From positions 1,260,001 to 1,292,000 of the forward strand of contig CAWJMG010000003.1 in the NCBI GenBank assembly GCA_963843975.1: a stretch of DNA of 32,000 nucleotides, written 5' to 3'. Below are positions 7,658 to 32,000 of this stretch, piece by piece. The first letter of the stretch is position 1; each line of letters opens with the position of its first letter. The DNA is from an uncultured Actinomycetes bacterium. GTDB taxonomy: Bacteria; Actinomycetota; Actinomycetes; S36-B12; CAIYMF01. The position numbers and the translations under genes were made by a program. The notes under the pieces were generated by a model that was not told the DNA's origin, ran no database searches, and saw only the letters and a program-made list of their open reading frames with translations.

Positions 7658-8887
7658 GTACAGCGCCATCCCGGTCACGCGCGCGGTCGACCAGCGAAGG
7701 CACCGCGACGACAGCTCGAGCGCAGGCACCGGCTCGCTCACGAGGTAGCCCTGGACCTTGTCGACGCCGAGCGTGCGCAGACGCTCGAACACCAGCGAGG
7801 TCTCGACGCCCTCTGCGGTCACCGCGAGCCCGAGCTGGTGGCCGAGCAGGACGGCGTTCTCGACGATGATCCAGTCGTTGAGGTTGTTGATGGGGTTCGC
7901 CGAGACGAACTCGCGGTCGATCTTCAGAGTGGTGAAGGGGTACCAGCGCAGGCGGTCGACGGTGGACGAGCCCGTGCCGTAGTCGTCGATGGCCAGCTTG
8001 AACTGCGCGAGCCCCAGCCGTGTCATGACGTCGAGCGCGGTCACCGCCACGCCGTCCGCGACCGTCTCGGTGATCTCCAGCGTCCAGGACGACGGCGGTG
8101 CCGCGCGGCCGAGGATGGACAGCAGCTCGTCCGGCGTCTCAGGCACGTTGAGGTCGAGCGCCGAGACGTTGATCGACACGTCGTCGAGGTCGGCGACGCC
8201 CGGCACCGACATGCGGTCCTCGGCCACCTGCTGCGCGACGTGCAGGAGCAGGTCGTGCTGACGCCCGAGCCGCTCGAGAGCCGGGACGAACTGGTCGGGC
8301 GGGATCAGCCCGTGCTCGGGGTGCCGCCAGCGCACCAGCGCCTCGGCCGAGCGGACGGTGCCGTCGGCGACGTTCGCGATGGGCTGGTAGAGCACGTGCA
8401 GCTGCGACGGCACCAGGTCGTCGATGATCGTGTTGACGTCGGGTCGCTGGCGCAGCACGAGCGCGGACTTCTGGACGGCGTCTCGGCAGTCGCGCAGCAG
8501 CGTACGCAACGACGAGAGGCCGAGCGGCTTGGGCATCGTGCCCAGCACCTGCAGGCCGTACAGCTGGGCGACGCGCGTCGCGGACGCGATGATCCGCTCC
8601 GACGCCCCACTGGCCAGCACCACCCGCGCGCCAGGCGCACGGCTCGCCAGGGTCTTCATCACGGCGATGCCGTCGCTGCCGATCAGCGCGAGGTCGAGGA
8701 CGATCACGTCGAAGTCCGCACCGAGCAGGCGGTCGATCTCCTCGGCCGTGCTCGCGCTCTGCGCCACGAAGCCCACCATGTTGGCGACGTCCGAGATCAG
8801 CTCGCAGATCGACGGCTCGTCGTCCACCACCAGCAGGCGGGGTCCTGCGTCCACCAGCGCGATCGGCATGGTCGTCGGGTCGCTCAT
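7655..8887 (-). CDS. Response regulator with REC + EAL (c-di-GMP phosphodiesterase) domains
   Basis: ATG 8887 overlaps the stop of the upstream kinase (ATGA at 8884-8887). REC motifs are LLVVDDEPS and DVIVLDLAL. The EAL domain retains YQPI, AEALVRW, LEITET, AIDDYGTGSS, LKIDREF, TAEGVET and QGYL. Confidence 0.9.
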   Translation of the reverse strand: MSDPTTMPIALVDAGPRLLVVDDEPSICELISDVANMVGFVAQSASTAEEIDRLLGADFDVIVLDLALIGSDGIAVMKTLASRAPGARVVLASGASERIIASATRVAQLYGLQVLGTMPKPLGLSSLRTLLRDCRDAVQKSALVLRQRPDVNTIIDDLVPSQLHVLYQPIANVADGTVRSAEALVRWRHPEHGLIPPDQFVPALERLGRQHDLLLHVAQQVAEDRMSVPGVADLDDVSINVSALDLNVPETPDELLSILGRAAPPSSWTLEITETVADGVAVTALDVMTRLGLAQFKLAIDDYGTGSSTVDRLRWYPFTTLKIDREFVSANPINNLNDWIIVENAVLLGHQLGLAVTAEGVETSLVFERLRTLGVDKVQGYLVSEPVPALELSSRCLRWSTARVTGMALY

Positions 8888-15828: not shown

Positions 15829-17475
15829 CTAGTAGGCGCCGCGCGACGCGAGCACGGCGCGAACGGTGCGCACCATGATCGCGATGTCGAGCAGGAAGCT
15901 CCAGTTCTCGACGTAGTACAGGTCGAGACGGACCGAGTCCTCCCAGCTGAGGTCGGCGCGACCGCTGACCTGCCAGAGGCCGGTGAGGCCGGGCTTGACG
16001 AGCAGACGGCGCTGCACGTGGTTCTCGTACTGCGCCACCTCGCGCGGCAGCGGCGGCCGCGGCCCGACGAGCGACATCTGGCCGAACAGCACGTTGACCA
16101 GCTGCGGCAGCTCGTCCAGGGACGTCTTGCGGAGGAACTTGCCGACGCGGGTGATGCGCGGGTCGTCGACGACCTTGAGCAGCGGGCCGTCGCCGTGGAC
16201 GTTGGCGGCCTTGATGTCGTCGAGGCGCGCCTCGGCGTCCATGCTCATGGATCGGAACTTCAGCATCGTGAAGGTCTTGCCCGCGCGCCCGACGCGCTCC
16301 TGGCGGAAGAAGGCCGGGCCGTGCGAGTCGAGCCGGACTGCGATCGCGAGCACGAGGAACAGCGGAGCGAGGAGCACGAGGGAGACGAAGGCGACGCCTC
16401 GGTCGAAGAGCCCCTTGAAGACGCGGCGGAAGCCGGTGAACTCGGGCTTCTCGACGTGCAGCAGCGGCAGGCCGGCGACCGGTCGCACCGAGATGCGCGG
16501 GCCTGAGACGTCGGTGAGGTTCGGCGTGACGAGGATGTCGACGTGGGTGCCCTCGAGCTCCCACGACAGGCGGCGGAGCTCGGCCTGCGACAGCGTCGAC
16601 CACGCGCCGAACGCGATGGTGTCCGCACCGGACCGGATGAGGGCGTCAGCGGCGTCGCGAGAGGTGCCCACGACCGGGACACCCTCGACGGTGTCGCCCT
16701 GCGCCTGGTCGACGAGCGCGCCGACCACGAGGAACGGGTGGTCGTCGTGGCGGCGCAGGCGGCGGATGAGCTCGGCGGTCGAGCGCTCGGTGCCGATGAC
16801 GAGCACGCGGCGCGAGGCCGTGCCCTCCCTCTCGGCGCGACGCTCGACGCGGCGGCCGATGGCGCGCACGATCAGGCTGAGGACCATCGCCAGCGGGATG
16901 GCGACGATGGCGTAGCCGCGGGCGAAGTCCCAGTTGAGCAGGTACGACAACAGCGCCAGGATCGCGAGGAACCGCACCGCGGAGTCGAGCACGCGGCGGA
17001 ACTCGTCGGTGCCGTCCCCGATGAACCGGGCCTCGTAGGCGCGGCCGAGCCCGAGCACGCCCACCCAGGCGAGCGGGAAGAGCAGGGTGACCGGCAGGTA
17101 GATCGCGTTGGGGCCGTAGCCGGCGTCGACGCCGAAGCGCAGGACGAGGGCGAAGGACGCGGCGAAGAAGGCAGCGAGCGCGTCGGCGACGATCAGGCCG
17201 CGGATGTAGCGCTTGACCCAGCGGACCCTGCGCAGGGAGATCGCCTCCAGGTCGGGGCGCCGGTCCTCGGGAGTGAGGTCGGCCTTGAAGATACGGGTCG
17301 TCTGCTGGGGAACGCTGGTCAGGACCGGCGGCTCGACCGCCGTGGCGCCGGGGACGAGGGCGATGACCTCGGGGTCAACGGGGTCTGCTGCGCGCAGGGC
17401 GTCGTCGATCGCGTGCGCCAGGCCCGCGCTCTGCGCCCGCTGCCGCTCCACCGCCACCGCTTCCTCGTCGAGCAT
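15829..17475 (-). CDS. Polyprenyl glycosylphosphotransferase (WbaP/CpsE-type priming sugar transferase)
   Basis: ATG 17475 is preceded by GGGGGAG. N-terminal TM spans and a linker are followed by the conserved C-terminal bacterial sugar-transferase domain (FRQERVGRAGKTFTMLKFRSM, DELPQLVNVLFGQMSLVGPRP, KPGLTGLWQVSGR). Confidence 0.9.
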   Translation of the reverse strand: MLDEEAVAVERQRAQSAGLAHAIDDALRAADPVDPEVIALVPGATAVEPPVLTSVPQQTTRIFKADLTPEDRRPDLEAISLRRVRWVKRYIRGLIVADALAAFFAASFALVLRFGVDAGYGPNAIYLPVTLLFPLAWVGVLGLGRAYEARFIGDGTDEFRRVLDSAVRFLAILALLSYLLNWDFARGYAIVAIPLAMVLSLIVRAIGRRVERRAEREGTASRRVLVIGTERSTAELIRRLRRHDDHPFLVVGALVDQAQGDTVEGVPVVGTSRDAADALIRSGADTIAFGAWSTLSQAELRRLSWELEGTHVDILVTPNLTDVSGPRISVRPVAGLPLLHVEKPEFTGFRRVFKGLFDRGVAFVSLVLLAPLFLVLAIAVRLDSHGPAFFRQERVGRAGKTFTMLKFRSMSMDAEARLDDIKAANVHGDGPLLKVVDDPRITRVGKFLRKTSLDELPQLVNVLFGQMSLVGPRPPLPREVAQYENHVQRRLLVKPGLTGLWQVSGRADLSWEDSVRLDLYYVENWSFLLDIAIMVRTVRAVLASRGAY

Positions 17476-17739
17476 CTCTCCCCCTTTCACCAGCTGCCGC
17501 CCGAGTCGACCCGGGCCACCGAACGTCTCGACTACCGGACACTGCAATCCGCCTGAACGCGAGATGAACGGAGAGGCAATCCCTGCTGTCCACCATGCGT
17601 CCGGACGGGTTCTCCGTCGTCACGCTCATGGATACCTCAGCACCGTTTCGTGCAGGTTGCTTCCACCGAACGGCTGAAGGTTTCGGCCCACGCGGGCGGA
17701 CATCACCCGTATGGGTGAACGACCACGACGATCGGTGAG

Positions 17740-19287
17740 TTACACCGACGACCGAGCACCCGCTTGGACCCCGCGAGGCTCCGACGCGACCGGTACCCGG
17801 TCGCCCCGCCGGAGGTCCTCGGAGCCGATCGCAGCCGCCAGGAGGCCCCAGACCACCCACATCGGCTGCGGCATGCCGCTGGCGGTGAAGTAGGGGAAGA
17901 AGAAGTTGATCACCGGGGTGATCGCGGCGATGCCCATGACGGTGGCGGCGATCGCGATCTCCGGCGAGGAGTCCGCGGAGAGCAGCCGGCGACGGGCGGC
18001 GCGCCACGACAGGTAGACCACGACCCCGCCGATCACGAGGAACGGGATCCCGCCCCGGAGCAGCAGCGTGATGTAGCCCGACTCGGTGTGGTCCCAGCTG
18101 ATGCCCGGCGGGTCGGCCGGCCCGTAGCCCGTGACCCACATCCCCGACAGCGCGGGCAGGTACTGGTCGCTCCAGACGATCCAGCGGTACAGCACCGTCT
18201 GCGGGATGATCGAGTCGCCCGCCATCGGCGTCGCACGCGTCGCGGTGGTCTGCTCAGCGATGCGGCCGACGACCAGCGGGAAGAAGGCGATGAGCCCGAC
18301 GGCTCCGCCCACGACGAGCCAGGTGAGCACCAGCTTCAGCCGCTTCATCGCCCAGCCGACCACCAGCACCCCGAGGACGAGGCCGGCGAGGATCGTGGCG
18401 GTCAGGGTGAACACCAGCGAGATGCAGGCGATGCCGAGGATTCCGAGGAGCCAGAGCGTCGGCAGGACCGTGGTGTCGCGCTTGAGCAGGAGCGCGACGG
18501 CGAGGAGCGCGATCACGACGAGGTAGCCGCCGAGCGGGTGCCACATCGGGAAGACGCTCGTCGCACGCATGACCGGGTCGTAGCCCGGCGTGATGAAGAT
18601 GCCTGTGCCGGAGAGGCTGACCGCGAGGTTCTGGAAGAACGCCGGGCCGACCATCTGCGCGATCGCCAGGAGGCTCACGGGGATGCTTGCGAGCAGCAGC
18701 GCACGCAGGGCCACGACGCGCAGCGCGCGGGTCGGGAAGGCCGAGGCCACGACGCGGTAGAGCAGGAGGAACTGGATCGGGCCGAGCATCGTGGTGACGT
18801 CGTCCGCCGTGATGATCGACTGCTGCAGCGCGGAGTTCAGGATGCCGAACACCGCGGTGCCGAAGCAGTACGCGAGCGCGGCCCAGTCCCAGGCGCGCCA
18901 GCGCGGCCCGGGCAGGTAGCGGGCCGCGAAGCCCAGCACGACGATCGCCGCGAAGACGGTGAGGAGCTCGGAGAACTTCAGCTGCGGCACCGGCAGCCCG
19001 CGGCGCAGGCCCGACGTGACCGGGACCAGCGCCACCGCGATCAGCGCGAGCAGGATGGGCCGCTGGGCGAGGTAGAGCCCCAGGCCGACGCCGAGCACGA
19101 CTGCGACGCCCACGATCGGCAGCCGCGCGGCGAACAGGCCGGCGACCGCCGTCGCACCGATCGCACCGAGCACGATCGCCCACGCCGGCAGCGGCACGAC
19201 GTCCATCACCCGCAGCGTGCGCACCGACCGGACCGGCCCCGGTGCGGGGAATGCAGCGGCGGGCGCGTGCACGGGCGCGAGGGTCAC
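17740..19287 (-). CDS. Wzy-like O-antigen polymerase/ligase-family multi-pass membrane protein
   Basis: At least 10 hydrophobic spans and a larger loop near the C-terminal third. The position in the locus fits this role. The GTG start at 19287 overlaps the upstream stop (GTGA at 19284-19287); an alternative start is ATG 19206. The stop is TAA, which is rare here. Family assignment is by architecture and context only. Confidence 0.6.
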   Translation of the reverse strand: MTLAPVHAPAAAFPAPGPVRSVRTLRVMDVVPLPAWAIVLGAIGATAVAGLFAARLPIVGVAVVLGVGLGLYLAQRPILLALIAVALVPVTSGLRRGLPVPQLKFSELLTVFAAIVVLGFAARYLPGPRWRAWDWAALAYCFGTAVFGILNSALQQSIITADDVTTMLGPIQFLLLYRVVASAFPTRALRVVALRALLLASIPVSLLAIAQMVGPAFFQNLAVSLSGTGIFITPGYDPVMRATSVFPMWHPLGGYLVVIALLAVALLLKRDTTVLPTLWLLGILGIACISLVFTLTATILAGLVLGVLVVGWAMKRLKLVLTWLVVGGAVGLIAFFPLVVGRIAEQTTATRATPMAGDSIIPQTVLYRWIVWSDQYLPALSGMWVTGYGPADPPGISWDHTESGYITLLLRGGIPFLVIGGVVVYLSWRAARRRLLSADSSPEIAIAATVMGIAAITPVINFFFPYFTASGMPQPMWVVWGLLAAAIGSEDLRRGDRVPVASEPRGVQAGARSSV

Positions 19288-20429
19288 GCCTTGCCCTCCA
19301 GGCGGTTCGCGATGCTGACGGTGGCGGGCGCCGGCGCGGTGGCCGGTGCGTGAGAGCGGTGCTTGGGTGCGAGCAGGCCCCACACCACCACGACGCCGTA
19401 CTCCCCCAGCCGGACGAGCGACTCGCGGACGACGGCCATGCGCGTGCCTTCGCGGACGACGACGACGACCAGGTCGCTGGTCTGGGTGCGGAGCTCGGCG
19501 CCCTCGCCGGTGCCGGGGGCACCGACTGCGACGAGACCGATGTCGCCCGACGTCCCGGCGTCGTCGGCGCGGGCCACGGCCTGCGACGCGTTCGGCGTGG
19601 TGGACCCAGCGCTGCGGGCCGACGCGGCAGGGTCCGGGCCGAGGCTCGCCAGGAGGTCCTTGACGTCGTCGCGGGACATCGGAGCGGTGGCCACGACGGC
19701 GACCTCGGGCGCCTCGACGCCCGAGAGCGACCGCCAGCGGTACGCGAGAGCGCGCGCCTCGGCGGGCGTCACGGTGCCCCAGTCGGTGGCGGGGGTGCCG
19801 AGGAGATCGGCGAGGTCGTCGGCCGTGTCGACGCGACGGTCGGAACGCTCGAGCGCGAAGGCGGCCAGCAGGCCCACCAGCAGGCCGAGGAGGCCGCCGA
19901 TGAACAGGGCCGACGAGCTGGACTCGCCCACGCGGACGGCGGCGTCAGGCACCGTGACGAGCTTCAGGCCGTCCTTGACGATCTGGCCGGGCGGGATCGG
20001 CCGCGTGACCGTGGTGGCGACCGCTGCCGCGGAGTCGACCGCCACCAGCGCCTTCTTGGCCACGACGTCGATGCGGACGAGCGCCGTTCCGGGGTCGCTC
20101 GTGACGGTGAGGCTCTCCCGCAGGTCCTTGGGCGCCACCCCCGCCTTCGCAGCGGCCGCGGCGATCACGGCGTCGTCGAGCGGGATGAGCGTGGCGTAGT
20201 TGGTGGCGGACTTCGCGGCGGCGTCGGGCGAGCCCGGCGGCAGCCCGCCCGGCGCGACCGCGGGAGCGATGACGACGGCCTCGGCCTGGTAGAGCGCCGG
20301 GGTGCGCGAGGACACGAGGAAGGCCACGCCCACTCCCACCACGACGCAGAGCAGGACGATGTACCAACGACGCTGCATCGGCTTGCGCCAGCGTCGGAGA
20401 CCACGGAAGCGGCCGGTGGTCGAGGTCAT
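19284..20429 (-). CDS. Wzz/polysaccharide co-polymerase-like protein with a degenerate BY-kinase-like C-terminal domain
   Basis: ATG 20429 is preceded by GGAGG and overlaps the upstream stop (ATGA at 20426-20429). TM1 is WYIVLLCVVVGVGVAFLV, followed by YQAEAVV, an extracytoplasmic stretch of about 160 aa, and TM2 ALFIGGLLGLLVGLLAAFAL. The C-terminal region resembles tyrosine-kinase partner domains (DLVVVVVREGTR) but has no GK[ST] Walker A. Confidence 0.65.
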   Translation of the reverse strand: MTSTTGRFRGLRRWRKPMQRRWYIVLLCVVVGVGVAFLVSSRTPALYQAEAVVIAPAVAPGGLPPGSPDAAAKSATNYATLIPLDDAVIAAAAAKAGVAPKDLRESLTVTSDPGTALVRIDVVAKKALVAVDSAAAVATTVTRPIPPGQIVKDGLKLVTVPDAAVRVGESSSSALFIGGLLGLLVGLLAAFALERSDRRVDTADDLADLLGTPATDWGTVTPAEARALAYRWRSLSGVEAPEVAVVATAPMSRDDVKDLLASLGPDPAASARSAGSTTPNASQAVARADDAGTSGDIGLVAVGAPGTGEGAELRTQTSDLVVVVVREGTRMAVVRESLVRLGEYGVVVVWGLLAPKHRSHAPATAPAPATVSIANRLEGKA

Positions 20430-21487
20430 GGGCGTCGTGCCTCCGTTGCTGGCTCGGCGTCGGACGCCGGGTCGTCGTGCAGGTCTCGCGCTCGCGCGGG
20501 TGCGTCGAGGTCGAGCATCGCGAGCAGCGCCTGCCGTTGATTGTCCCAGCGTCGTTGCTGGCGCGCGCGCACGGTGTCGAGGTCGTGCACGAGCCGGTCG
20601 TGGTCCCGTACGGCGAGGCTGAGCGCCTCGGCGATGCCCGCGCGGTCGTTCGCGCAGCACACCGCCTCGGGGAACAGCTCCCGCATGGTCAGAGTGTCGC
20701 TCATGACGAGCACCCGACGCGCGTAGCCGGCCTCATATGCAGCACGCATCACGGAGGTCGGCTCGGTGGTCAGGGCGAGCAGGATGTCGCAGGCGTCGAC
20801 CTCGGCGGCGTACGCGGCCTGGTCGAGCCAGCCCGTGAGGCGGACGTTCGGCGGAAGGTCGTCGAGCAGGCCGTCGCCCGCCTTGCGCGGATCGCCGGTG
20901 ACGACGACGTCGACGTCGGGGAGATCGCGCGCGGCACCGATCACCTCGGCCACCGGCTCGTCGGAGGCGAAGACGCACGAGAAGAGCACCTGCGGGCGGC
21001 GGGCGTCCAGCGGCCGTGCGGGCGAGGTGGACCAGTGCGGCGGCGCCTCGTGGAGGACCAGCGGTGTCCCGCCCCACGAGCGCACGACGTCTGCCCACGA
21101 GTCGGTGGTCACGAGGACCCCGTCGGCCAGGCGGGCGAGGCGCTGAGTGACCTTGAGCATCTTCTGCGCCTGCGCGTTGTCCTTGGCGCCGAAGGATGCC
21201 GGGTGGCTGTCGAGGACGAAGCGGGCACGCGTGAGCCTGGCCCAGCCGAGGCCGATCAGGCCCGGGTAGACCGGAGGGTTCTGCACCACGACCGCGCGGG
21301 GGCGGCTGCGGACGAGACGTCCCACGGTGACGAGCGCGCTGGCGGCGTACCGCACCGGCGTCAGCCGACGCTCGGCGAGCCGCTTCGGGTAGATCGTGAC
21401 GGCCTCGCCGTCGAGGTCCGCCGCCAGGTCGCGGGCACGACCGGCGGTGGGTGCCCAGGCGAGGAACTGAACGCGGGCGCGGCTCAT
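20426..21487 (-). CDS. Glycosyltransferase (GT-B fold, GT4-like)
   Basis: 353 aa. ATG 21487 overlaps the upstream stop (ATGA at 21484-21487). It has a two-Rossmann-like layout with the C-terminal block ILLALTTEPTSVMRAAYEAGYARRVLVMSD. Family assignment has moderate support only. Confidence 0.6.
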   Translation of the reverse strand: MSRARVQFLAWAPTAGRARDLAADLDGEAVTIYPKRLAERRLTPVRYAASALVTVGRLVRSRPRAVVVQNPPVYPGLIGLGWARLTRARFVLDSHPASFGAKDNAQAQKMLKVTQRLARLADGVLVTTDSWADVVRSWGGTPLVLHEAPPHWSTSPARPLDARRPQVLFSCVFASDEPVAEVIGAARDLPDVDVVVTGDPRKAGDGLLDDLPPNVRLTGWLDQAAYAAEVDACDILLALTTEPTSVMRAAYEAGYARRVLVMSDTLTMRELFPEAVCCANDRAGIAEALSLAVRDHDRLVHDLDTVRARQQRRWDNQRQALLAMLDLDAPARARDLHDDPASDAEPATEARRP

Positions 21488-22440
21488 GCGGCACCGTCCC
21501 GGAGCAGCTGGAACACGGGCGGGTCAGGAACGGGTTCGACCGTGCGGGCCATGGCCGCGCTCAGCACCGCGGCGTCGAGGTCGTCGACCTCGCACGCGAT
21601 GGCCACGCCGCGGCGGTCGAGCTCGGCCGCGATCTGCACCTGGTGGTCGTCGACGTGCTCGCCGTACGCGAGCCGGCGCGGCAGCAGGACCGCGCACTTG
21701 CCCTCGGCCATCGCGAGGAGCCCCGAACCCGTGCCGGAGTGGCCCACCACGAGGTCGGCCTCGCGGACCGCGGCGGACAGGTCGGCCGAGGGCACGCTGT
21801 GCTTGCCGTCCACGGGCAGGCCGCTGATGTCGGTGTCGCCGGTCTGCCACAGCACCTCGGCGTCCGCGGGCAGCACCGCGAGGAGCTTCTCGACCGCCCG
21901 GCGGAAGCCGTACGGCGAGATGGTGCCGAGCGTGACGACGACGGACCGGGGAACCGTGGGCGCGCCGACGCGGGCCGGGCCGGGGCGGAAGGCGTCGAGG
22001 ATCGAGCCGGAGTAGTGCCAGCGCCCGCCGGCCCAGGCCGGGTACTGCGAGTACGTGTTGACGCCGGGGATGCGCGAGACGATCTTGCCCGACAGCGAGG
22101 GGCCGTCCGCCCTGGCGGCGCTCTCGACGTAGTGGCACGTGATGCCGCGGGCGCGCGCGGGGACCATGAAGGACACCGCGACGCTGGCGCCGGTCGACAC
22201 GACCCGGTCGTACGTGCCCGTCTTGAGCAGGTCGTTGGCGGTGCGGCCGATCGTCACCGCGACCGCGAGGTCGCGCGGGGCGGCGTACGGCACGTAGACG
22301 ACGTCCTCCCCGGCGAGCAGCGACCGCGACTGCGGCGTGTCGAAGGTGACCCAGGTGACGTCGCCGATGGGCAGGCGGGGGCGCAGGGTCCACATCTGCT
22401 GGAGGTGGCCGCCTCCCGAGCAGACGAGCAAGGTGGTCAT
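21484..22440 (-). CDS. Fused Alg14-like + Alg13-like (Glyco_tran_28_C) glycosyltransferase
   Basis: The N-terminal LLVCSGGGHLQQM matches the Alg14/PssD-like motif. The C-terminal half (VVVTLGT...VVGHSGTGSGLLAMAEGK...DDHQVQIAAEL) matches the Alg13/PssE-like half. ATG 22440 overlaps the upstream stop (ATGA at 22437-22440). Confidence 0.7.
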   Translation of the reverse strand: MTTLLVCSGGGHLQQMWTLRPRLPIGDVTWVTFDTPQSRSLLAGEDVVYVPYAAPRDLAVAVTIGRTANDLLKTGTYDRVVSTGASVAVSFMVPARARGITCHYVESAARADGPSLSGKIVSRIPGVNTYSQYPAWAGGRWHYSGSILDAFRPGPARVGAPTVPRSVVVTLGTISPYGFRRAVEKLLAVLPADAEVLWQTGDTDISGLPVDGKHSVPSADLSAAVREADLVVGHSGTGSGLLAMAEGKCAVLLPRRLAYGEHVDDHQVQIAAELDRRGVAIACEVDDLDAAVLSAAMARTVEPVPDPPVFQLLRDGAA

Positions 22441-23498
22441 GAGGCGGCCTTCTGGTAGCCGGGCGAGGAGTAGCCGACGCCGGGCGTGCCCTCGGGGAGC
22501 TTCGCACCGTCGGCGGTGGTGGCCAGGCGCACGCCGCCCTCCCAGACGCCGAACGGCCGCAGCATCCCCTCGAGGTCGCTGCGCTGGTCTACGAGGACGA
22601 TGTCCTGCGCGGTGAGGTACGGCGCGGTGTCGTCAGCCCACAGGAGGTAGGCCGCGCCACCGTTCTCACCGCCGGGGTTGCCGGTGATCACGATGCGGCG
22701 CAGGTCGAACGAGTCCGGGGGCGTGTCGAGGAACTGCTGCGGCAGCAGGAAGAAGCCCTGGTACTGCGTGGCACCCGTCAGGCCGTCGATGCGGAGCGTC
22801 GACGGCCCCGCCCACGTCTGGAGGATGTCTGCGTGGTGGCCGTCGCGCGAGCCGTGCACCTCGTCGACGGCGATGTTCTGCAGGACGACGGTGGCACCCA
22901 TGCTCTGGTCGAGGTCGATGCCCTCGGCGAGGTCGGTGCCGGAGATGCGCACGCCCTCGATGTGGATCGTCCCGGTCTGGTTCTTGAGCAGCAGTCCCGT
23001 CCGGTCACGGGACTCCGGCGCCTCGGACTTCGGAGGCACAGCGATCTCTCCACCGATGATGACGACGTTGTGGCCGCCCTCGATGCGGACGCCGCCCGCG
23101 ACCACGAGCGGAGAGGCCGGCAGCGTCACGATGTAGTCGCGGTCCGGGCTCAGCTCGACCTTGTTCGAGGTGGCCGTGACGGTCACGGTGAGCGGGTCCT
23201 TGAGCGTCGGGGGCGCCCAGGTGAGCCGGTCGGCCTCGGCTGCGGTGCTCGTCGGCGTCGGTAGCGCGGGCCCGGCGGCGGGCTTGCCTGCCGCACGAAC
23301 CGCGAGGACGGCGGCGACGGCGGCGACGAGGAGGACGAGGGCGGCCACGGCGACGACCGCCCGACGCGGCGCGCGCGGGGCCGCCGGAGGAACGGACGGC
23401 TGCGAGCGCTCCTCGGTGGACGACGTGCGCACCGTCACCCCCAGATCGTCGAGCATGGACACCACCAGCCTAGGTGAGCGGTGACGGATAGTCGTCAT
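22437..23498 (-). CDS. Membrane-anchored protein with unassigned extracytoplasmic domain (paralogue 1)
   Basis: A single TM, RRAVVAVAALVLLVAAVAAVLAV, is followed by a domain of about 260 aa homologous to the C-terminus of the next gene upstream. The start is uncertain: ATG 23498 is chosen, with alternatives GTG 23564 and ATG 23456. None has a strong RBS. Confidence 0.6.
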   Translation of the reverse strand: MTTIRHRSPRLVVSMLDDLGVTVRTSSTEERSQPSVPPAAPRAPRRAVVAVAALVLLVAAVAAVLAVRAAGKPAAGPALPTPTSTAAEADRLTWAPPTLKDPLTVTVTATSNKVELSPDRDYIVTLPASPLVVAGGVRIEGGHNVVIIGGEIAVPPKSEAPESRDRTGLLLKNQTGTIHIEGVRISGTDLAEGIDLDQSMGATVVLQNIAVDEVHGSRDGHHADILQTWAGPSTLRIDGLTGATQYQGFFLLPQQFLDTPPDSFDLRRIVITGNPGGENGGAAYLLWADDTAPYLTAQDIVLVDQRSDLEGMLRPFGVWEGGVRLATTADGAKLPEGTPGVGYSSPGYQKAAS

Positions 23499-23579
23499 CG
23501 CGCCGCCGTATCTACCTGTTCGGCCTACCGCGGTCGCACGACCCGCGTCCCGGGTCGTCACCACCGGTCACGCAGAGCA

Positions 23580-23616
23580 ACGAACGGCCGACCCCGGGAC
23601 GACGAACGGCCGACCC
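23580..23616. promoter_or_regulatory. Perfect 15-nt direct repeat with 22-bp periodicity upstream of the 23498->17740 operon
   Basis: ACGAACGGCCGACCC occurs at 23580-23594 and again at 23602-23616. An adjacent inverted repeat, CCAGG-TT-CCTGG, lies at 23618-23629. The repeats sit between the terminator hairpin of the upstream gene and the next start codon. Confidence 0.3.
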
Positions 23617-23636
23617 GCCAGGTTCCTGGACGCGCG

Positions 23637-23667
23637 CCGGCCCCGCCCTCAGCGAGGACGGGGCCGG
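23637..23667 (-). terminator. Terminator hairpin after the malectin-domain gene
   Basis: Minus-strand CCGGCCCCGUCCUC-GCU-GAGGGCGGGGCCGG forms a 14-bp stem with one U-G wobble. On the opposite strand that position would be a C-A mismatch, so the hairpin favours the minus-strand transcript. It lies 20 nt downstream of the stop at 23687. Confidence 0.6.
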
Positions 23668-23686
23668 TGCGATGGTGCAGGTGCGG

Positions 23687-25273
23687 TCAGCCCACGTAGC
23701 CGGGGCTCGTGTAGCCGGTGCCCGCCGAGGCTGCGAAGTCGACCGGGGCGCGGCCCTTGGTGACGTTCGGCCAGTCGCTTGCGGAGTTCCAGTTGCCGAG
23801 GCCGCCGGAGGTGAACACGTTGTAGGTCGCGATGCCCTGCGGCGGGCGGACCCGCCAGAGGATGTACTTCGCGGACGCGTTGCCGACGAGCTCGACGTTC
23901 TTGAGGACCCAGTTCTCGGTGACCGCAGAGGCCGTCGAGGTGTCGTGCGGGTTGAGGAACATGCCCTGGTAGCCCGTGGTGGCGGTGAAGCCGTCGACCA
24001 GGAGGGTCTCAGGACCGTTCCAGGCCTGGAGGGCGTCAGCGTGGTTGTACGCCTGGGTGCCGGTGAGGACGGTGTCGATCGACACGTTCTGGATCTGCAC
24101 GGTGGCGAGCGGCGCGCTGATGTTGATGCCCTCGGAGAGGCTGCCCGAGGAGGAGATGAAGCGCACGCCCTCGAGGTGGACCGTGCCGGTCTGCGAGAGG
24201 AAGTACGCCGCGCGCTTGACCATGCCGTCCGCGGGGACGCCAGGACCGGTGCCCGAGCTGTACCAGCCGCCGGCCACGTCGACGGTGCCGCCGACGATGA
24301 CGACGTTGCGGCCGCCCACGATCTCGAGCCCGTGGGTGTTGGTGTACACCGCGCCGGCCGGGAGCTTCAGGATGTAGTCGGTGCCGGCCGAGAGCGAGAT
24401 CTTGCCGTCAGGACGGCTGGCCAGGTCGATGGTCACCGGGTTGGTGAGGGCCGGCGGTGCCCAGGACAGCGGACCGGCCTGCGTCGGGTTGGTGCTGGCC
24501 GGCGGCGGGGTCGTGGTGACCGGGGCCGGGGTCGTGGTCACGGGCGCGGGGGTCGTGGTGACCGGGGCCGGGGTCGTGGTCACGGGTGCCGGGGTCGTGG
24601 TGACCGGGGCCGGGGTCGTGGTCGCAGGTGCCGGGGTCGTGGTGACCGGCGCGGGGGCGACGGTGACGTCGACGGGGTCGATCCGGAGTCCGGAGACCAT
24701 CGCGTAGTCCTTGCTCGCCTTGAACGCGAGCGACAGGGCGCCGTCCTTGACCGTGACGACCGCGGAGCGGGTGAGCTCCTTGTCGTGGCCGGCGACGGCG
24801 TACACGTCGAGGTTCGAGAAGACGCTGACGCCCTCGGCGGTCGCGCTGAAGATGCGCTTGCCCTTCGCCTTCCAGTAGGTCTCGGCCATCACGAAGGTGA
24901 CCTTGTAGGTGCCGTTCGCGACCGGGACCTTGTAGGCGCTCATGCCGTAGCGGTAGTTGCGCACGACGCCTGCGTCGTCCGAGCTGGACACCGAGTCGGA
25001 GGTCTTGCCGATCTTGCCGCCGGTGAAGCCGGTGTCGGCGGACCAGACCGTGCCGTCGCTGGAGGCGATGCCGGCACCGCCGGAGTCGATGTTCAGGGAC
25101 GGGACGGCGGCGTCGCCGGCGCTGGCGCCGAACACGGACGTGAGGCCGGCCGCGACGAGAGCGGCAGCGACGCCCGCGGCGGTGAGGGAGCGGGGGGAGG
25201 CCGAGACGCGACGGGTGCCGGCAGCGGTGCGCCGCGGCTGCTCCGTGTGACGCCCGGAGGACGAAGTGCTCAT
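23687..25273 (-). CDS. Secreted protein: malectin-like carbohydrate-binding domain + (PAPVTTT)x7 linker + unassigned domain (paralogue 2)
   Basis: ATG 25273 is preceded by AGGAG. The signal region is ...TRRVSASPRSLTAAGVAAALVAAGLTSVFGASA. The malectin-like block is YRYGMSAYKVPVANGTYKVTFVMAETYWKAKGKRIF...LDVYAVAG. The C-terminal domain shares LxWAPP, DYIxxLPA, GGxNVVIxGG, QTGTxHxEGVR, EGI, HADxLQxWxGP, YQGxFL and GYxSPGY with the 22437..23498 product. Confidence 0.8.
   Translation of the reverse strand: MSTSSSGRHTEQPRRTAAGTRRVSASPRSLTAAGVAAALVAAGLTSVFGASAGDAAVPSLNIDSGGAGIASSDGTVWSADTGFTGGKIGKTSDSVSSSDDAGVVRNYRYGMSAYKVPVANGTYKVTFVMAETYWKAKGKRIFSATAEGVSVFSNLDVYAVAGHDKELTRSAVVTVKDGALSLAFKASKDYAMVSGLRIDPVDVTVAPAPVTTTPAPATTTPAPVTTTPAPVTTTPAPVTTTPAPVTTTPAPVTTTPPPASTNPTQAGPLSWAPPALTNPVTIDLASRPDGKISLSAGTDYILKLPAGAVYTNTHGLEIVGGRNVVIVGGTVDVAGGWYSSGTGPGVPADGMVKRAAYFLSQTGTVHLEGVRFISSSGSLSEGINISAPLATVQIQNVSIDTVLTGTQAYNHADALQAWNGPETLLVDGFTATTGYQGMFLNPHDTSTASAVTENWVLKNVELVGNASAKYILWRVRPPQGIATYNVFTSGGLGNWNSASDWPNVTKGRAPVDFAASAGTGYTSPGYVG
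24509..24655 (-). repeat. Seven tandem 21-bp units (alternating as 42-bp units) encoding PAP[VA]TTT
   Basis: The + strand reads ggggtcgtggtgaccggggcc / ggggtcgtggtcacgggcgcg and so on. The units are in frame within the CDS and encode a Pro/Thr linker. Confidence 0.9.
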
Positions 25274-25403
25274 GATGATGTGCTCCTGTCGTCGGCACTG
25301 ACGGCTGTGAGGGGCCGCCTTGCGGAAGTGCGCGAACAGTTGGGGTTTCGGGACTGCGAGAGCCCGGCTTGACCCTTCGGGGCGCTGCTGGGCCATGTGG
25401 GTT

Positions 25404-25421
25404 ATGTGCCCGTGGGCACAT
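25404..25421. promoter_or_regulatory. 18-bp palindrome in the 427-nt intergenic region upstream of the malectin-domain gene
   Basis: ATGTGCCC-GT-GGGCACAT has perfect 8-bp arms and lies about 130 nt upstream of ATG 25273. Function is unknown. Confidence 0.25.
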
Positions 25422-25700
25422 CGGCGACGGTCTCCGTGACTCGTCGATGCGGCCGTCCCTGGCCCGTCCGGAGGATCCCCTCCTCACCCCGTCACGGACC
25501 GCGAGCACTCCGTACGTGCTGGATCCGTCACGTCAGGCGACGACACTCACCCGATCGGCCCAGAGAAGGGCGACCTGAGGGACTTCGTCGCGGTCCTGTC
25601 CTCCGGTGACGTGATGTGACATGACCGACGTCGCTCACGATCGACGCACGAGGCAGCAGCGCCGCCGACGTCGGTCGACGGGATCGGCTGGTGTCCGGGT

Positions 25701-26753
25701 TCACCCGCGAGGAGCAACGGCCGATCGCCAGAGAGCGACGTTCCGGCTCGCCTCTACCTCGCGCAGGACGGAGGGGGCATCGTCGGCTGCACCGGCCGCG
25801 GACGGGGCGAGACGGTCGAGGATGCGCAGCGCCGAGCGGGCCCAGGCGAGCGCGAAGAGAGCGGGCTCGAGATCGGCGTCGGTCCGCGCCCCGACGTGCT
25901 GCGCGAAGGCCCGACGGGACGCGCCTGACGGGTCGGCCAGCTCTCGCTCGAACACCGGCACCTCGGCCGCCACGCCGTGCACGCCGGCCTCGGAGAAGGC
26001 GAGGAACGCGAGCAGCTGGGCGAGGTCGTGCCCGATGACGCCGTACTCGCGCCCGAGCTCCCAGTCGACGAGCCCGATCGCCGATCCAGGGCCGTCGAGG
26101 ACGAGGATGTTCGGGTGCGCGGGATCTCCGTGCTCGAACACCGTCGGCAGCAGGCGGCCTCGCAGCGGCTCGACGGCGGCGCGCGTCGCAGCGACCGTTG
26201 CGTGCAGCTCGTGCCCCTCGGGCAGGAGCGCGACCAGCCGTTCGAGCAGCGGCTCGAGCAGGAGCGCCAGCAGATCGGCCCCGTCGGCCTCCCCGGTCAT
26301 CGGCAGCCCGTCGACCCACGTCAGGGCGCTCCCCCGCGCTGCCGCGTCGGTGCGCGCGCGGGCGTGGGTCAGTGGCTCGCCGTTGAGCGGGCTCTCGAGC
26401 AGCAGGCGGCGTCCATCGACACGCACGCAGGCGAGTGCCCCGGGCGTGGTCCCGAGGAGCCCGGGCGCGCGCTGGCCGAGGCGGCGCAGCACGGTGGCCT
26501 CGTGCACCACGGCATGGTCGGCGGTGATCGACCGCGGCACCTTGAGGACGCTGCGCAGGCGCCCCCGGCGGTCGAGGACCAGGCCGACGACGTGGCGCGA
26601 CTCCACGAAGCCCGGGGTCACCACGAGGACGCGTGCGTCAGGCGGCAGCGCGTCCGCGAGGACGGCGGGCTCGGCGCACCAGTCGAGCTCGGAGTCCTGC
26701 GCCGGCACGCCGGTGCGCAGCTGCTCGATGACGCTGTCGAAGTAGGTGCTCAT
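25701..26753 (-). CDS. Aminoglycoside-phosphotransferase-like (APH / protein-kinase-like fold) kinase
   Basis: The listed 739-aa ORF is over-extended. ATG 26753 overlaps the flippase stop (ATGA at 26750-26753) and gives 350 aa. The catalytic-loop motif FEHGDPAHPNILV and the downstream GLVDWELG are present. Confidence 0.75.
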   Translation of the reverse strand: MSTYFDSVIEQLRTGVPAQDSELDWCAEPAVLADALPPDARVLVVTPGFVESRHVVGLVLDRRGRLRSVLKVPRSITADHAVVHEATVLRRLGQRAPGLLGTTPGALACVRVDGRRLLLESPLNGEPLTHARARTDAAARGSALTWVDGLPMTGEADGADLLALLLEPLLERLVALLPEGHELHATVAATRAAVEPLRGRLLPTVFEHGDPAHPNILVLDGPGSAIGLVDWELGREYGVIGHDLAQLLAFLAFSEAGVHGVAAEVPVFERELADPSGASRRAFAQHVGARTDADLEPALFALAWARSALRILDRLAPSAAGAADDAPSVLREVEASRNVALWRSAVAPRG

Positions 26754-28885
26754 GGCCGCGCCCGGCGTCCGGTGGCGATGCGGTCGCGCGCCACCCAGGA
26801 CACCAGCCCGAGGCGCACGAGCACCCGGGCGGCGGCCGACAGGACGCGGCCGCGGCGGCTGCCCTCGTGCCGCCCGAGGGCCACGCGGACGGCGACCGAC
26901 GAGTCGAGGGGCACGAGCATCGAGCGCGAGCTGCGGCGGGGCGCCTCCCAGTGCAGGGCGACGTCGGCGAGTCCCGCCGCGGTCAGCGCGCGGACCGACG
27001 ACCGGAGCGGTCGGCGGGTGGGCGCGAGCTCGACCACCACCCAGGTGCCGTCGGGCACGTCGGCCAGCGCAGCCGCCAGCGCGGCGTCCGGCAGCGGCCC
27101 GAGGCGGACGCCGCCTCCCACGGTCGGGAGGAGGAACAGCGGGTCGTCGGTGCGCGGGTCGAACGGCGGCGGCGGAGGCTCGGCCGGGTCCGTGCCGTCC
27201 GTGGCGGGCGGCACGTCGCCCGCGGCTTCCGGGGCTCCCGCGGACGGCACGAGGTAGGGGTTGCGCCCGCCCTTCGTGCCACGCGCCGACAGCCGGCGCA
27301 GGATGCCGCCGGCGACCGGGATGCGCAGCAGCTCGGGGAAGGTGTGCGCGACGTCGAGGTACGGCAGCGTCACCACGAGAACGCCGATGCTCACGATCGC
27401 GCTGAGCAGCAGGGCGAGGAGGAACCCGACGCCGAGCCATCGCTGCAGCAGCGCGGTGGCCACGACCCCGGCCGCCATCGCGGCGTACGGACCCACCATC
27501 CACCGCTCGACGACGCCGGGTGCCAGCCCCTTGAGGCCGAGCTGGCGCAGGACGTTCCCGAGCACGAGCGACAGCGTCATGCTCACTGCCGCGCCCCAGG
27601 CCCCGTAGCGCGGGATGAGCAGGAAGGCGCTCGCGATGCCGATCGCGAGGGTCGCGAGGTTGGCGAAGAAGATGAAGCGGAGGCGTCCGGCCGTCGCCAT
27701 GAGGATCGCGCTGAAACCCGTGGCCGACTGGAACCAGAAGCCGAACGCGGTGATGGCCAGGAGCGGTGCGCTGGCGGCGTACTGCTGGCCGAGCAGAGTC
27801 GTGGTGACGGGCGGGGCGAACGAGACGCTGAGCACGAGCGCCGGATACGACACGAGGGCGACCCAGAGAGCGGTGCGCCAGTAGGTGAGCCGTACCCCGT
27901 GCATGTCGCCGCGCTGCCACTGCCGCGTGATCATCGGCGGGAACAGCACCCAGAAGGCGCCCGAGGCGGCCATCGACAGCTGGGCGATCGGCATGACGGC
28001 GCGGAGAGCCGCGACGTCCGCCGAGGTGCCCACAGCACCGAGCACGAACGTCGGCAGCGCCATCACGACGACGTACACGAGCGAGGACGTCATGAGGGGG
28101 AAGCCCTCGCGCATCATCGCGCGGACGGGCAGCGTGACGCGGCCGCGCAGCTCGGCGAGGATGCCCATCCGCGACAGCAGCTGCACGACCATGACGGCGT
28201 AGATCGACACACCCAGCAGGGAGGCCAGCACATAGCCGACGGTGAGGCCGTAGACGCCAGCGCCGAGGAGGTAGACGCCGACGATCGCCGTGAGGCGCAG
28301 GCCCGGCTCGAGCAGGTAGCGGCGGACGAAGACCGCACGGGCTCGGGCGAAGGTGGCGAAGGTGTTCATCACCATCGCGTCGAGCGCGCCGAGCGGCGCG
28401 AGCAGCACCATGAGCACGAGCAGGTTGGCCGCGGTGTCCGACGGCGCGATGCCCGGCGACAACCGGCCGTGCCAGATCAGGACCGCCACGAACACGAGGG
28501 AGCCGAGGCCGACGACGACGAGCCCCTCGGTCACGAGGACGCCGACGAGCTTGCGGTCGTCACCCTCCTCGTCGTACTTGGCGAGGAAGCGCGAGTCGAT
28601 GCGGTCGAGCCCGAGCGGGATCACCGACTGCACGAGCGTGACGATCGACAGCGCCCAGGCGAACGAGCCGAAGTCGTCCTTGGTGAGCACGCGCACGAGC
28701 AGCAGCTGGATGACGAGCCCGAGGCCCATGCCGAGCAGGCGGCCGATCAGCAGCAGTGCCGAGCCGCGCATCTGCGCCTTGCTCGAGGCCTTGCCACGGG
28801 GTGCCCGTTGCGGGGCCGAGCCGTCGGTGCCGCTGTCGTCCCCGCCTCCCAGGGAGCCCTGATCGAGCGCCCCGTCGGCGGTCAC
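26750..28885 (-). CDS. Wzx-like polysaccharide flippase (MOP superfamily) with a C-terminal soluble extension of about 200 aa
   Basis: 711 aa. About 12-14 hydrophobic spans run to about residue 507. A Pro-rich linker (PAEPPPPPFDP) follows, then a globular tail (LLPTVGGGVRLGP...WVVVELAPT...HWEAPRRSSRSMLVPLD...). GTG 28885 overlaps the repaired-frame stop of the upstream gene (GTGA at 28882-28885). Confidence 0.75.
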   Translation of the reverse strand: MTADGALDQGSLGGGDDSGTDGSAPQRAPRGKASSKAQMRGSALLLIGRLLGMGLGLVIQLLLVRVLTKDDFGSFAWALSIVTLVQSVIPLGLDRIDSRFLAKYDEEGDDRKLVGVLVTEGLVVVGLGSLVFVAVLIWHGRLSPGIAPSDTAANLLVLMVLLAPLGALDAMVMNTFATFARARAVFVRRYLLEPGLRLTAIVGVYLLGAGVYGLTVGYVLASLLGVSIYAVMVVQLLSRMGILAELRGRVTLPVRAMMREGFPLMTSSLVYVVVMALPTFVLGAVGTSADVAALRAVMPIAQLSMAASGAFWVLFPPMITRQWQRGDMHGVRLTYWRTALWVALVSYPALVLSVSFAPPVTTTLLGQQYAASAPLLAITAFGFWFQSATGFSAILMATAGRLRFIFFANLATLAIGIASAFLLIPRYGAWGAAVSMTLSLVLGNVLRQLGLKGLAPGVVERWMVGPYAAMAAGVVATALLQRWLGVGFLLALLLSAIVSIGVLVVTLPYLDVAHTFPELLRIPVAGGILRRLSARGTKGGRNPYLVPSAGAPEAAGDVPPATDGTDPAEPPPPPFDPRTDDPLFLLPTVGGGVRLGPLPDAALAAALADVPDGTWVVVELAPTRRPLRSSVRALTAAGLADVALHWEAPRRSSRSMLVPLDSSVAVRVALGRHEGSRRGRVLSAAARVLVRLGLVSWVARDRIATGRRARP

Positions 28886-30138: not shown

Positions 30139-32000
30139 CTACGACAGGACCTCGATCGCGTTGACCTGCGGGTTGTCCGTCTTGCGACCGAAGGTGATGA
30201 CGATCGGGCTGCCGGTCGTGACCGTGAACGTCTTCACGATTCCCCGCTTCGCACCGCCTGCCGCCGACACGATGTCGAAGCCGGTGAGGACCTTGGTGCC
30301 GTTGATGGACACATCGAAGACCCGCTTGCCCGTGGCGGTCCAGTAGGTCTCGGCGAAGTAGAGCCGGACGGTGTACGTCTTCAGCCCGTTGACCGGCATG
30401 GTCCAGATCATGTTCTTGCCGCCGGACAGGTCGTAGCGCGAGCTCTGGAAGAGCGCGGCCGGCGTCCCCGCGGGGATGGACGGGTCGGACACGTTGATGG
30501 CCGAGGTCGTCGTCGCGACGCCCGTCTTGGTCGACCCGGAGTTGGACCAGGGCGACCGCGACGTGGCGGTGTCGACGAGCCAGCCGCCCGTGAGCGCGGC
30601 GCCGCCGGCGTTGACGCGGTCGAGCGGCGTCAGTGCCGGAGCGGGGCTCACGACCACGGTGGTGCTCGCGGAGGTCGAGCCTCCCGCGTTGGTCGCGGTC
30701 AGGGTCACGGTGTAGGTCCCTGCCGCCGTGAAGGTGTGCGACGGGCTCTGAGCCGTGCTGGTGCCGCCGTCGCCGAAGTCCCACGCCCACGACGTCGCAC
30801 CGCCGGTCGAGGTGTTCGCGAACGTCACTGCGAGCGGCGCGCTGCCCGAGGTGGCCGACGCCGTGAACGACGCGGAGGGAGCCGCCGGGAGGCTGACGTC
30901 CACGGTGGTGCTCGCGGAGGTCGAGCCGCCTGCGTTGGTCGCGGTGAGCGTGACGGTGTAGGACCCGACGGCCGTGAACGTGTGCGACGGGTTGCGCGAG
31001 GTGCTCGCGCCGCCGTCGCCGAAGTCCCACGCCCACGACGTCGCGCCGCCGGTCGAGGTGTCGGTGAACGACACCGCCAGGGGCACGGTGCCGGACGTGG
31101 CCGACGCCGTGAACGACGCGGTGGGTGCGACGGGGGCCGCTACGTCGACGGTGGTGGTGGCCGTGGTGGAGCCGCCGGCGTTGGTGGCGGTGAGCGTGAC
31201 GGTGTACGAGCCCGATGCTGAGAACGTGTGCGAGGGGCTGCGCGAGGTGCTGGTGCCGCCGTCGCCGAAGTCCCACGTCCATGAAGTGGGGGCACCGGTC
31301 GACGTATCGGTGAACGACACGGGGAGCGGTGCGGTGCCGGACGTGGTCGACGCCGTGAACGACGCAGTGGGCGCGACGGGCGCTCCCACCTGGATGACGG
31401 TGGTGGCCGTCGTCGAGCCGCCGTCGTTCGTCGCGGTGAGCGTGACGGTGTAGGCGCCGGACGCGCTGAACGTGTGCGACGGGTTGCGCGACGTGCTCGT
31501 GCCGCCGTCGCCGAAGTCCCACGCCCACGACGTCGCACCGCCGGTGGACGTGTCGCTGAACGACACGGGAAGCGGTGCCGTGCCGGACGTCGTCGACGAC
31601 GTGAACGACGCGGTGGGCGGCGTGACACCGCCGAAGTCGGCGAACCAGTAGCGGGGGCTCGTCTCCGTCGCCGCCAGCACGAGCACGCCCGATGCGGCGG
31701 TCGCCGGCAGCTTGGCCGACGTCGCGTTGTTCATCGAGGCGTTCGACGCCTCGCGCAGCACCGGCACGCCCGCGCCCGAGAACGACAGTGCCGAGAGGGA
31801 GCTCGACTTCTCGTAGACCGTGCCCTGGAACGCCACGATGCCGGCTGTCGAGGGACCGGTGTAGAAGGCGTGGAGCTGGTCGTCGGCCGGGTCTACGACC
31901 ACCATGGGCCGAGTGCCCGAGTCGGCGACGGTGGCGAACGGCGCGGTCGTCCAGGTGCCCGAGGCCGGGGTGTAGACGGCGGCGACGAGCAGCGGGTCGG
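30139..32000 (-). CDS. Large secreted/surface protein: N-terminal domain (continues past window) + 4 PKD repeats + C-terminal malectin-like domain
   Basis: The frame is open from the window edge (32000) through the listed M at 31905. Stop is TAG 30139-30141. Four repeats of about 82 aa carry WxWDFGDGxxS and SHTFxxxGxYTVTLTATN. The C-terminal block RVNAGG...YTVRLYFAETYWTATGKRVFDVSINGTKVLTGFDIVSAAGG...NAIEVL is malectin-like. Confidence 0.85.
   Translation of the reverse strand, partial: DPLLVAAVYTPASGTWTTAPFATVADSGTRPMVVVDPADDQLHAFYTGPSTAGIVAFQGTVYEKSSSLSALSFSGAGVPVLREASNASMNNATSAKLPATAASGVLVLAATETSPRYWFADFGGVTPPTASFTSSTTSGTAPLPVSFSDTSTGGATSWAWDFGDGGTSTSRNPSHTFSASGAYTVTLTATNDGGSTTATTVIQVGAPVAPTASFTASTTSGTAPLPVSFTDTSTGAPTSWTWDFGDGGTSTSRSPSHTFSASGSYTVTLTATNAGGSTTATTTVDVAAPVAPTASFTASATSGTVPLAVSFTDTSTGGATSWAWDFGDGGASTSRNPSHTFTAVGSYTVTLTATNAGGSTSASTTVDVSLPAAPSASFTASATSGSAPLAVTFANTSTGGATSWAWDFGDGGTSTAQSPSHTFTAAGTYTVTLTATNAGGSTSASTTVVVSPAPALTPLDRVNAGGAALTGGWLVDTATSRSPWSNSGSTKTGVATTTSAINVSDPSIPAGTPAALFQSSRYDLSGGKNMIWTMPVNGLKTYTVRLYFAETYWTATGKRVFDVSINGTKVLTGFDIVSAAGGAKRGIVKTFTVTTGSPIVITFGRKTDNPQVNAIEVLS
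30634..31620 (-). repeat. Four tandem repeats of about 246 bp (PKD-domain coding)
   Basis: The 246-nt periodicity is visible directly. For example, ggtgctcgcggaggtcgagcc occurs at 30661 and 30907. Long near-identical stretches occur between units. Confidence 0.9.

Follow-up and report, generated by a model that had tools for sequence, protein, structure and literature searches.

We analysed a 32,000-nucleotide stretch of DNA from an uncultured Actinomycetes bacterium (the window; positions 1,260,001 to 1,292,000 of contig CAWJMG010000003.1), in which two neighbouring genes of a predicted polysaccharide locus encode proteins that share a C-terminal domain. The proteins are called A (P0001, product of 22437-23498) and B (P0002, product of 23687-25273), and the common domain is called X. 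Based on the data below, we propose, with a probability of roughly 0.55, that X represents an undescribed β-helix family of glycan-cleaving enzymes, analogous rather than homologous to WceF/WcaM or RbmB, whose members would most likely be extracytoplasmic, endo-acting hydrolases or lyases. The family is new in sequence; the theme that it appears to follow, a β-helix glycanase encoded in a polysaccharide cluster, is already well established. The assignment of X as a glycan-processing enzyme draws on conserved Wzx/Wzy neighbourhoods, on fusions to carbohydrate-binding modules and on a genomic context with GH130 and AraC-family genes. As far as computation reaches, it agrees with an earlier note on this DNA, which had suggested from the letters alone an enzyme of this kind acting on the product of the locus.

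Both open reading frames (ORFs) lie on the minus strand where the earlier note had placed them, with a third-position GC of 0.90-0.92 that is typical of the window's real genes, and all eight sequence blocks listed there as conserved occur in both proteins. That one product is membrane-anchored and the other secreted with a malectin module and a Pro/Thr linker is borne out by hydropathy, by the PF11721 match and by the sequence itself. In A, residues 49-67 reach a 19-residue Kyte-Doolittle mean of 3.11 just after a PRAPRR stretch; this segment is a predicted transmembrane signal-anchor, and some 20 residues of Pro/Ala spacer lie between it and X. The corresponding segment of B (residues 30-48; hydropathy 1.92) is milder and is followed by ASA/G, giving a predicted N-terminus typical of a cleavable signal peptide, within which TRRVSA is a possible twin-arginine motif. 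The module behind it matches PF11721 with 68 bits (cut-off 23; E 1.2e-18), and Foldseek relates it to human malectin (9ikp, E 1.6e-6) and to the malectin-like module of Bacteroides β-glucuronidases (E 6.5e-8). Malectin/CBM57 modules of this kind are appended to bacterial glycosidases. In B, the module, which is the only part of the protein with a clear Pfam and structural match, is joined to an uncharacterised domain through a linker of about 60 residues made of seven PAPVTTT-type units, with a predicted local distance difference test score (pLDDT) below 50 for residues 204-264.

The X domains of A and B share 38% identity over 216 aa (BLASTP, residues 88-287 of A against 265-473 of B, E 5e-36). 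They had been described as two paralogues aligning along their whole length. Their relationship stands, but the genome holds four copies of X in total (A, B, C and D; Table 1), and the alignment needs a small qualification: MAFFT carries the similarity through to the common terminal G.GY.SPGY, whereas BLAST similarity weakens over the last ~65 residues, a variable C-terminal cap. All 72 homologues of A are called 'hypothetical'. Since the closest of them are called at 339-340 aa (one at 353 aa), A may start at M15 (23456) instead of 23498; the 528-aa start of B is backed by full-length homologues of 528 aa.

With a 55-sequence alignment, AlphaFold2 models domain X of A with a mean pLDDT of 96 and a predicted template-modelling score (pTM) of 0.93, as regular coils that each comprise one short and one long strand. 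In the model of whole B, the domain repeats the strand pattern of A, and the pLDDT exceeds 90 for most of residues 270-528. When domain X was compared with known structures by Foldseek, the top 50 matches in the PDB and the named matches in BFVD were all right-handed β-helices: PL6, PL1 and PL3 lyases, GH28, GH49 and GH87 hydrolases, CE8 esterases, phage tailspikes and the adhesin PfbA. The best of them, the PL6 structure 7dmk, has an E of 0.1 and a template-modelling (TM) score of 0.41; TM scores are at most 0.47 overall and none of the matches is significant. The fold class is therefore established and homology to a specific enzyme family is not: at fold-class level, the models establish X as a short right-handed parallel β-helix, in keeping with the repetitive β fold, possibly a β-helix, that its periodic blocks had suggested. 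The full-length model of B also gave a GH87 match (E 5e-4), which was not relied on (root-mean-square deviation 20 Å, TM score 0.18); otherwise only its malectin part gives significant Foldseek matches.

The domain had been left without a named family, and the searches leave it there. Pfam, NCBIfam and PHROGs hold no significant match to X, and the PDB sequences yield nothing with either a single sequence or the 55-sequence profile, two HMG-D matches at E 0.75 being noise. In neither A nor B does X match a Pfam model of the right-handed β-helix clan (Beta_helix PF13229, Pectate_lyase_3, NosD) at E up to 1, and a single one of the 55 homologues matches PF13229, weakly (E 0.009). Two NCBIfam matches to A were below threshold and were disregarded, namely CU044_5270 (E 0.0015), over the transmembrane and linker region, and invert_tail (E 0.37).

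Conservation was counted over 274 family domains (domain numbering plus 84 gives P0001 numbering). It is highest in the HAD.LQ.W block, whose H, D, Q and W (H138, Q143 and W145 kept in 97%, D140 in 96%) mark the domain maximum and are invariant in alignment A2, which is consistent with the earlier proposal of this block as a candidate active site. Elsewhere in the domain, D37 and Q163 are kept in 97%, Y162 in 95%, Y38 in 94%, Y200 in 90% and W203 in 88%, and the position of E108 is acidic in 95%; in P0001 the set reads D121/Y122, E192, H222/D224/Q227/W229, Y246/Q247 and Y284/W287. The first strands of successive coils in the model begin at domain residues 37, 53, 83, 108, 140, 163 and 200 (DSSP string). 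The conserved residues would therefore stand in register on consecutive coils, which is how pectate-lyase-like enzymes arrange their substrate groove. In such an arrangement, a single groove some 30 Å long would run along the helix, lined by the polar and aromatic residues. The most plausible catalytic acid/base pair is E192 and D224 (domain E108 and D140), which sit on neighbouring coils by strand register; H222 would assist them. E97, N124 and D154, at a turn in the long strand (xEGx, xQNx, xDGx), look structural, in the manner of an Asn ladder.

Basic residues are scarce in this pattern, the only widely conserved ones being the Arg at domain position 83 (81%) and R183. Position 83 (T167 in P0001, about 22998-23000) lies in RRGLYLK in the family; in the A clade it is Thr (DRTGLLLK), the preceding Arg alone being retained, and B retains the Arg (VKRAAYF). 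This change may reflect a specificity difference between the paralogues.

The association of X with polysaccharide genes recurs well beyond this genome. Four distant loci were examined through precomputed Pfam tables (the 'Jannaschia' sp. R86511 record, a Solirubrobacterales metagenome-assembled genome (MAG), Modestobacter and a JGI metagenome contig), and all four are of the Wzx/Wzy type, containing Bac_transf, GT28_C, GT4 and GT2, often together with Wzy. Of the 26 loci that span at least 12 kb, single-sequence tblastn places a GT28_C homologue within 10 kb of X in 16, Wzy in 13, GT4 in 13 and Bac_transf in 11. In the window, A ends and the adjoining GT28_C gene begins in a shared ATGA, in which stop and start codons overlap, so that A is translationally coupled to the glycosyltransferases.

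Domain fusions tell a similar story. X is joined to malectin (in at least 10 proteins), ricin-B, F5/8-C, legume lectin, CBM6, CBM60 and CE2_N, and further to PKD, fn3, SLH, CWB2 and dockerin, a pattern that, judged from domain composition, is typical of the catalytic module of a carbohydrate-active enzyme (CAZyme). In Lentisphaerae bacterium GWF2_50_93, a stand-alone secreted X (L024:9872-10786) stands between two AraC-family regulators and adjoins a GH130 gene (β-mannoside phosphorylase); by its predicted gene content this setting is a catabolic, not a biosynthetic, locus. Two metagenomic proteins (P0018 and P0075) carry a tandem pair of X in a single polypeptide, with two separate profile matches each. 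One family member has a phage Dit domain, and among 50,697 phage records a homologue was found in only one, that of Microcystis phage Mae-JY30 (28-29% identity). It is a stand-alone X of 273 aa, annotated as hypothetical (PP438422.1 58630-59451; L045:5992-6813), that lies a few genes downstream of tail-fibre and peptidoglycan-binding protein genes and sits on a very long tree branch. The distance of this sole phage homologue rules out a phage origin of the copies described here.

Several points weigh against a glycan-cleaving X. Its catalysis is predicted only; there is no significant structural match to the domain in the PDB or BFVD; the groove and the proximity of E192 and D224 follow from strand register rather than from measured distances; a motif check found no DPH, QDT or DFIFG signature in the domain; Trp, Tyr, Gln, Asp and His are equally typical of non-catalytic sugar-binding sites; and the data do not discriminate between a hydrolase, a lyase and other chemistries. 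X could instead be a β-helix that binds polymer without cleaving it, as a lectin, adhesin or scaffold, with A anchoring the capsule or matrix and B acting through its malectin module as a bivalent cross-linker. The lack of significant likeness to any catalytic family, the surface adhesin PfbA among the fold matches and the aromatic and polar nature of the conserved residues are all compatible with such a role, and WceF itself agglutinates lectin-like with its substrate (PMC7949094). We nevertheless consider pure binding rather unlikely. At least six kinds of carbohydrate-binding module are appended to X, as is usual for catalytic modules; X is the sole large globular domain in many members; adjacent coils carry two acidic residues and a His that hardly vary across phyla; and both the GH130/AraC context and the phage copies suit an enzyme better.

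The proposal of a glycan-cleaving X has precedents among enzymes encoded with the polysaccharide that they cut. WceF of Pantoea stewartii, a trimeric β-helix glycosidase encoded in the stewartan cluster, cuts stewartan to repeat units (PMC7949094). Like WceF, AmsF (Erwinia amylovora) and WcaM (E. coli colanic acid), its nearest counterparts in proposed function, X is an exported right-handed β-helix of a Wzx/Wzy exopolysaccharide cluster. Unlike WceF, X is far shorter (about 260 aa, ~8 coils) and has no tailspike-like N-terminal or trimerisation parts, and it differs from the whole group in its transmembrane-anchored and malectin-fused paralogues and in its hosts, which are mostly Gram-positive actinobacteria. 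Membership of the WceF/WcaM family is rejected at the sequence level, since hhalign of X profile A2 against E. coli K-12 WcaM gave a probability of 0.3% over 7 aligned columns; WceF has no entry among the top 50 fold matches. A second precedent is the Vibrio polysaccharide (VPS) lyase RbmB of Vibrio cholerae, a β-helix enzyme encoded with biofilm polysaccharide genes that is reported to cleave the matrix polysaccharide of its own cell (PMC11637428). RbmB (PDB 9ozd) is only a very weak fold match to X (E 1.4, TM score 0.14) and shows no sequence similarity to it; RbmB is a lyase, a chemistry that is not established for X.

More broadly, X shares its fold class and the appended carbohydrate-binding module with the PL6, PL1, PL3, GH28, GH49, GH87 and CE8 families and with tailspike depolymerases. 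β-Helix CAZymes carry a long groove along one face, with adjacent coils supplying the catalytic residues; the same architecture would be expected of X. None of the Pfam models of these β-helix families matches it. Membership of PL6, PL1 or PL3, lyases marked by a Ca-binding acidic cluster with a Lys/Arg base, finds no footing in the best fold match (7dmk) or in the profile search of PDB sequences; of the two widely conserved Arg positions, 83 is Thr in A. To our knowledge, the motif set D-Y, E-G-I, H-A-D-x-x-Q-x-W-x-G-P, Y-Q-G and G-x-G-Y-x-S-P-G-Y is not a known signature of these β-helix CAZyme families.

A β-helix in this position could also modify the polymer and leave the backbone uncut, as an AlgG/AlgE-type C5-epimerase or a CE8-type carbohydrate esterase that works on the nascent chain at the membrane. 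The fold is common to AlgG/AlgE and CE8 enzymes, the pectin methylesterases 5c1c and 9mm2 are among the matches, A is predicted to be membrane-tethered and co-translated with glycosyltransferases, and the conserved His, Asp and Gln of X are akin to the sets found there (Asp/Gln/Arg or His/Asp). The absence of the defining motifs makes either chemistry less likely: the DPH of the mannuronan C5-epimerase motif DPHD is missing from all four copies, and QDT and DFIFG, which mark CE8, are likewise missing. The two esterase matches are weak and score no better than those to lyases and hydrolases. Secreted copies with binding modules, dockerin and phage-tail fusions and a catabolic context would, moreover, be unusual for a biosynthetic modifier, and we regard this alternative as improbable.

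The only recurring class of catalytic partner fused to X is that of the phosphoesterases. Such fusions involve five different families (PhoD twice, PF04185, Metallophos and Exo_endo_phos PF03372) and occur in P0036, P0261 and three proteins of alignment A3; they may hint at phosphate-containing glycopolymer substrates. They also fit the idea that X acts on something other than the locus product, such as a phosphodiester-containing wall glycopolymer or a foreign nutrient polysaccharide, its position in the locus reflecting co-regulation only. The catabolic setting of the Lentisphaerae copy and the patchiness of the family, with X in 4 of 24 congeneric species and in 3 of 300 genomes drawn from the whole phylum, point the same way. 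This alternative is very unlikely in view of the tight and recurrent linkage to the same biosynthetic genes across families, the translational coupling of A to a glycosyltransferase gene, and the gain and loss of X genes together with the whole locus. A more far-reaching idea, which we hold to be very doubtful, is that X, as a minimal β-helix of 8 coils, forms a new class of catalyst, in which Glu, His and Asp would cleave sugar-phosphate or adjacent glycosidic linkages of phosphodiester-linked or phosphorylated glycopolymers. It would account for the phosphoesterase fusions, for the kinase-like genes by the flippase and for the NAGPA-type gene ~5 kb past copy C.

For glycan-cleaving A and B, we propose the following division of tasks. 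A would be tethered on the outer face of the membrane through its anchor and Pro/Ala spacer, where it could trim or release the nascent polymer beside the Wzy/co-polymerase machinery and so control chain length or release. B would be secreted, targeted by its malectin module on the long flexible linker, and its role would be to remodel capsule or matrix polymer. C and D would be further secreted variants. A tethered and a secreted paralogue side by side would offer a tractable system for how Gram-positive bacteria build and trim a Wzy-dependent polymer.

A maximum-likelihood tree places A in a transmembrane-anchored clade with support of 95/95, and B, C and D group apart. The separate, well-supported placement of A rules out a recent tandem duplication, and the separation of the A clade from the others argues for an old, maintained division of labour within the pair. 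The adjacency of A and B is retained in five other genomes (G307, G320, G321 and G314, plus G326 from another family of the order), where the copies occur as a set. C and D each group with their own orthologue from another Nanopelagicales MAG. Copy C marks the far edge of the extended locus, behind more PKD/fn3 proteins, and adjoins an XRE/TPR regulator.

Searched with the family profile, 1.84 billion cluster representatives (50% identity) yielded 1654 clusters with E no higher than 1e-3, 667 of which have an E of 1e-30 or lower. Named carriers are Nanopelagicales MAGs and Longivirga aurantiaca (74% identity to A); further carriers in the phylum belong to Cellulomonas, Actinotalea, Pseudokineococcus, Quadrisphaera, Acidothermaceae and Solirubrobacterales, and those outside Actinomycetota to Lentisphaerae, Kiritimatiellia and Victivallales, together with one FCB-group MAG. 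The family thus spans Actinomycetota and PVC/FCB-group bacteria with no coverage in Pfam, NCBIfam or the PDB. If catalytic, it would constitute a new CAZy-type family and provide an annotation for a recurrent unknown gene of actinobacterial exopolysaccharide loci. One record among the carriers, NZ_JAXHCD010000001.1 ('Jannaschia sp. R86511'; L021/L039), bears the label of a Roseobacteraceae genus, yet its locus has a GC content of 75%, and an Actinomycetales MAG carries a near-identical X domain (branch lengths 0.04 and 0.11); the record may be taxonomically misassigned.

The GC content of the window is 70-76% throughout (about 72%), and third-position GC marks a run of genuine genes on the minus strand from ~15.8 kb to the window end. 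By their predicted products, these genes are a Wzx/Wzy-type polysaccharide locus. The features are collected in Table 1. A scan of 23400-25800 for promoters and terminators found nothing.

Table 1. Features of genes A and B, further copies of domain X, and neighbouring genes (window positions unless a contig or locus is named)
Feature	Position	Strand	Basis or remark
Gene A, 353 aa: short cytoplasmic tail, transmembrane anchor, Pro/Ala spacer, domain X	22437-23498	-	ORF, translation, third-position GC 0.90
Predicted transmembrane signal-anchor of A, residues ~46-70	23289-23363	-	Kyte-Doolittle, preceding PRAPRR
Domain X of A, residues 88-353, predicted right-handed β-helix, about 8 coils	22440-23237	-	AlphaFold2, Foldseek
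H222-A-D224-I-L-Q227-T-W229 of A, candidate catalytic/substrate site	22812-22835	-	Conservation
Gene B, 528 aa: signal peptide, malectin domain, Pro/Thr linker, domain X	23687-25273	-	Translation, AlphaFold2
Predicted signal peptide of B, residues 1-52, ASA/G	25118-25273	-	Hydropathy, cleavage motif read from sequence
Malectin domain of B, residues 60-186	24716-25096	-	PF11721, Foldseek
Pro/Thr linker of B, (PAPVTTT)x7, disordered	24482-24661	-	Sequence, pLDDT
Domain X of B, residues 265-528; candidate site E381, H411, D413, Q416, W418, Y435, Q436	23690-24481	-	BLASTP against A, model, conserved columns
Copy C, 320 aa: signal peptide, domain X	G000:C3:1301758-1302681 (L003 1504-2466)	-	~19 kb upstream of A, ~10 kb past window end
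Copy D, 498 aa: transmembrane segment, Pro/Thr linker, domain X	G000:C3:2334116-2334961 (L002 847-2343)	+	Elsewhere in genome, beside transposase-like ORF
ATGA overlap, stop of A and start of GT28_C gene	22437-22440	-	Direct sequence reading
Cys/Met-metabolism PLP enzyme and alpha/beta-hydrolase ORF, 825 aa	12962-15439	-	PF01053, PF00561
Bac_transf priming transferase	15829-17547	-	Pfam scan
Wzy-like polymerase	17740-19383	-	Pfam scan
Protein with no Pfam match, putatively co-polymerase-like by topology	19284-20660	-	Pfam scan; topology from the earlier note
GT4	20426-21487	-	Pfam scan
GT28_C (Alg13/14-like) glycosyltransferase	21484-22440	-	PF04101 match
APH-type kinase-like gene	25701-26786	-	Pfam scan
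Wzx flippase	26750-28885	-	Pfam scan
PKD x4 and malectin protein	from 30139 (30139-31999)	-	Pfam scan
Further PKD/fn3/malectin proteins	L046:2102-5623 and 7214-9622	-
NAGPA-domain protein	L046:15539-16876 (G000:C3:1307539-1308876)	-	PF09992

Between the Wzx gene and copy C lie large secreted proteins with two to four PKD domains, fn3 and malectin; together with the copies of X, they make up an unusually large set of exported glycan-active candidates in the locus. The NAGPA phosphodiester-glycosidase domain protein (E 1.9e-18) is encoded beyond an MFS sugar transporter gene. The 825-aa ORF, which follows the polysaccharide locus immediately downstream, combines a pyridoxal phosphate (PLP) enzyme domain of Cys/Met metabolism (E 1e-101) with an alpha/beta-hydrolase domain and looks, from these domain matches, like a fusion of a sulfhydrylase with an acyltransferase-type enzyme of methionine biosynthesis.

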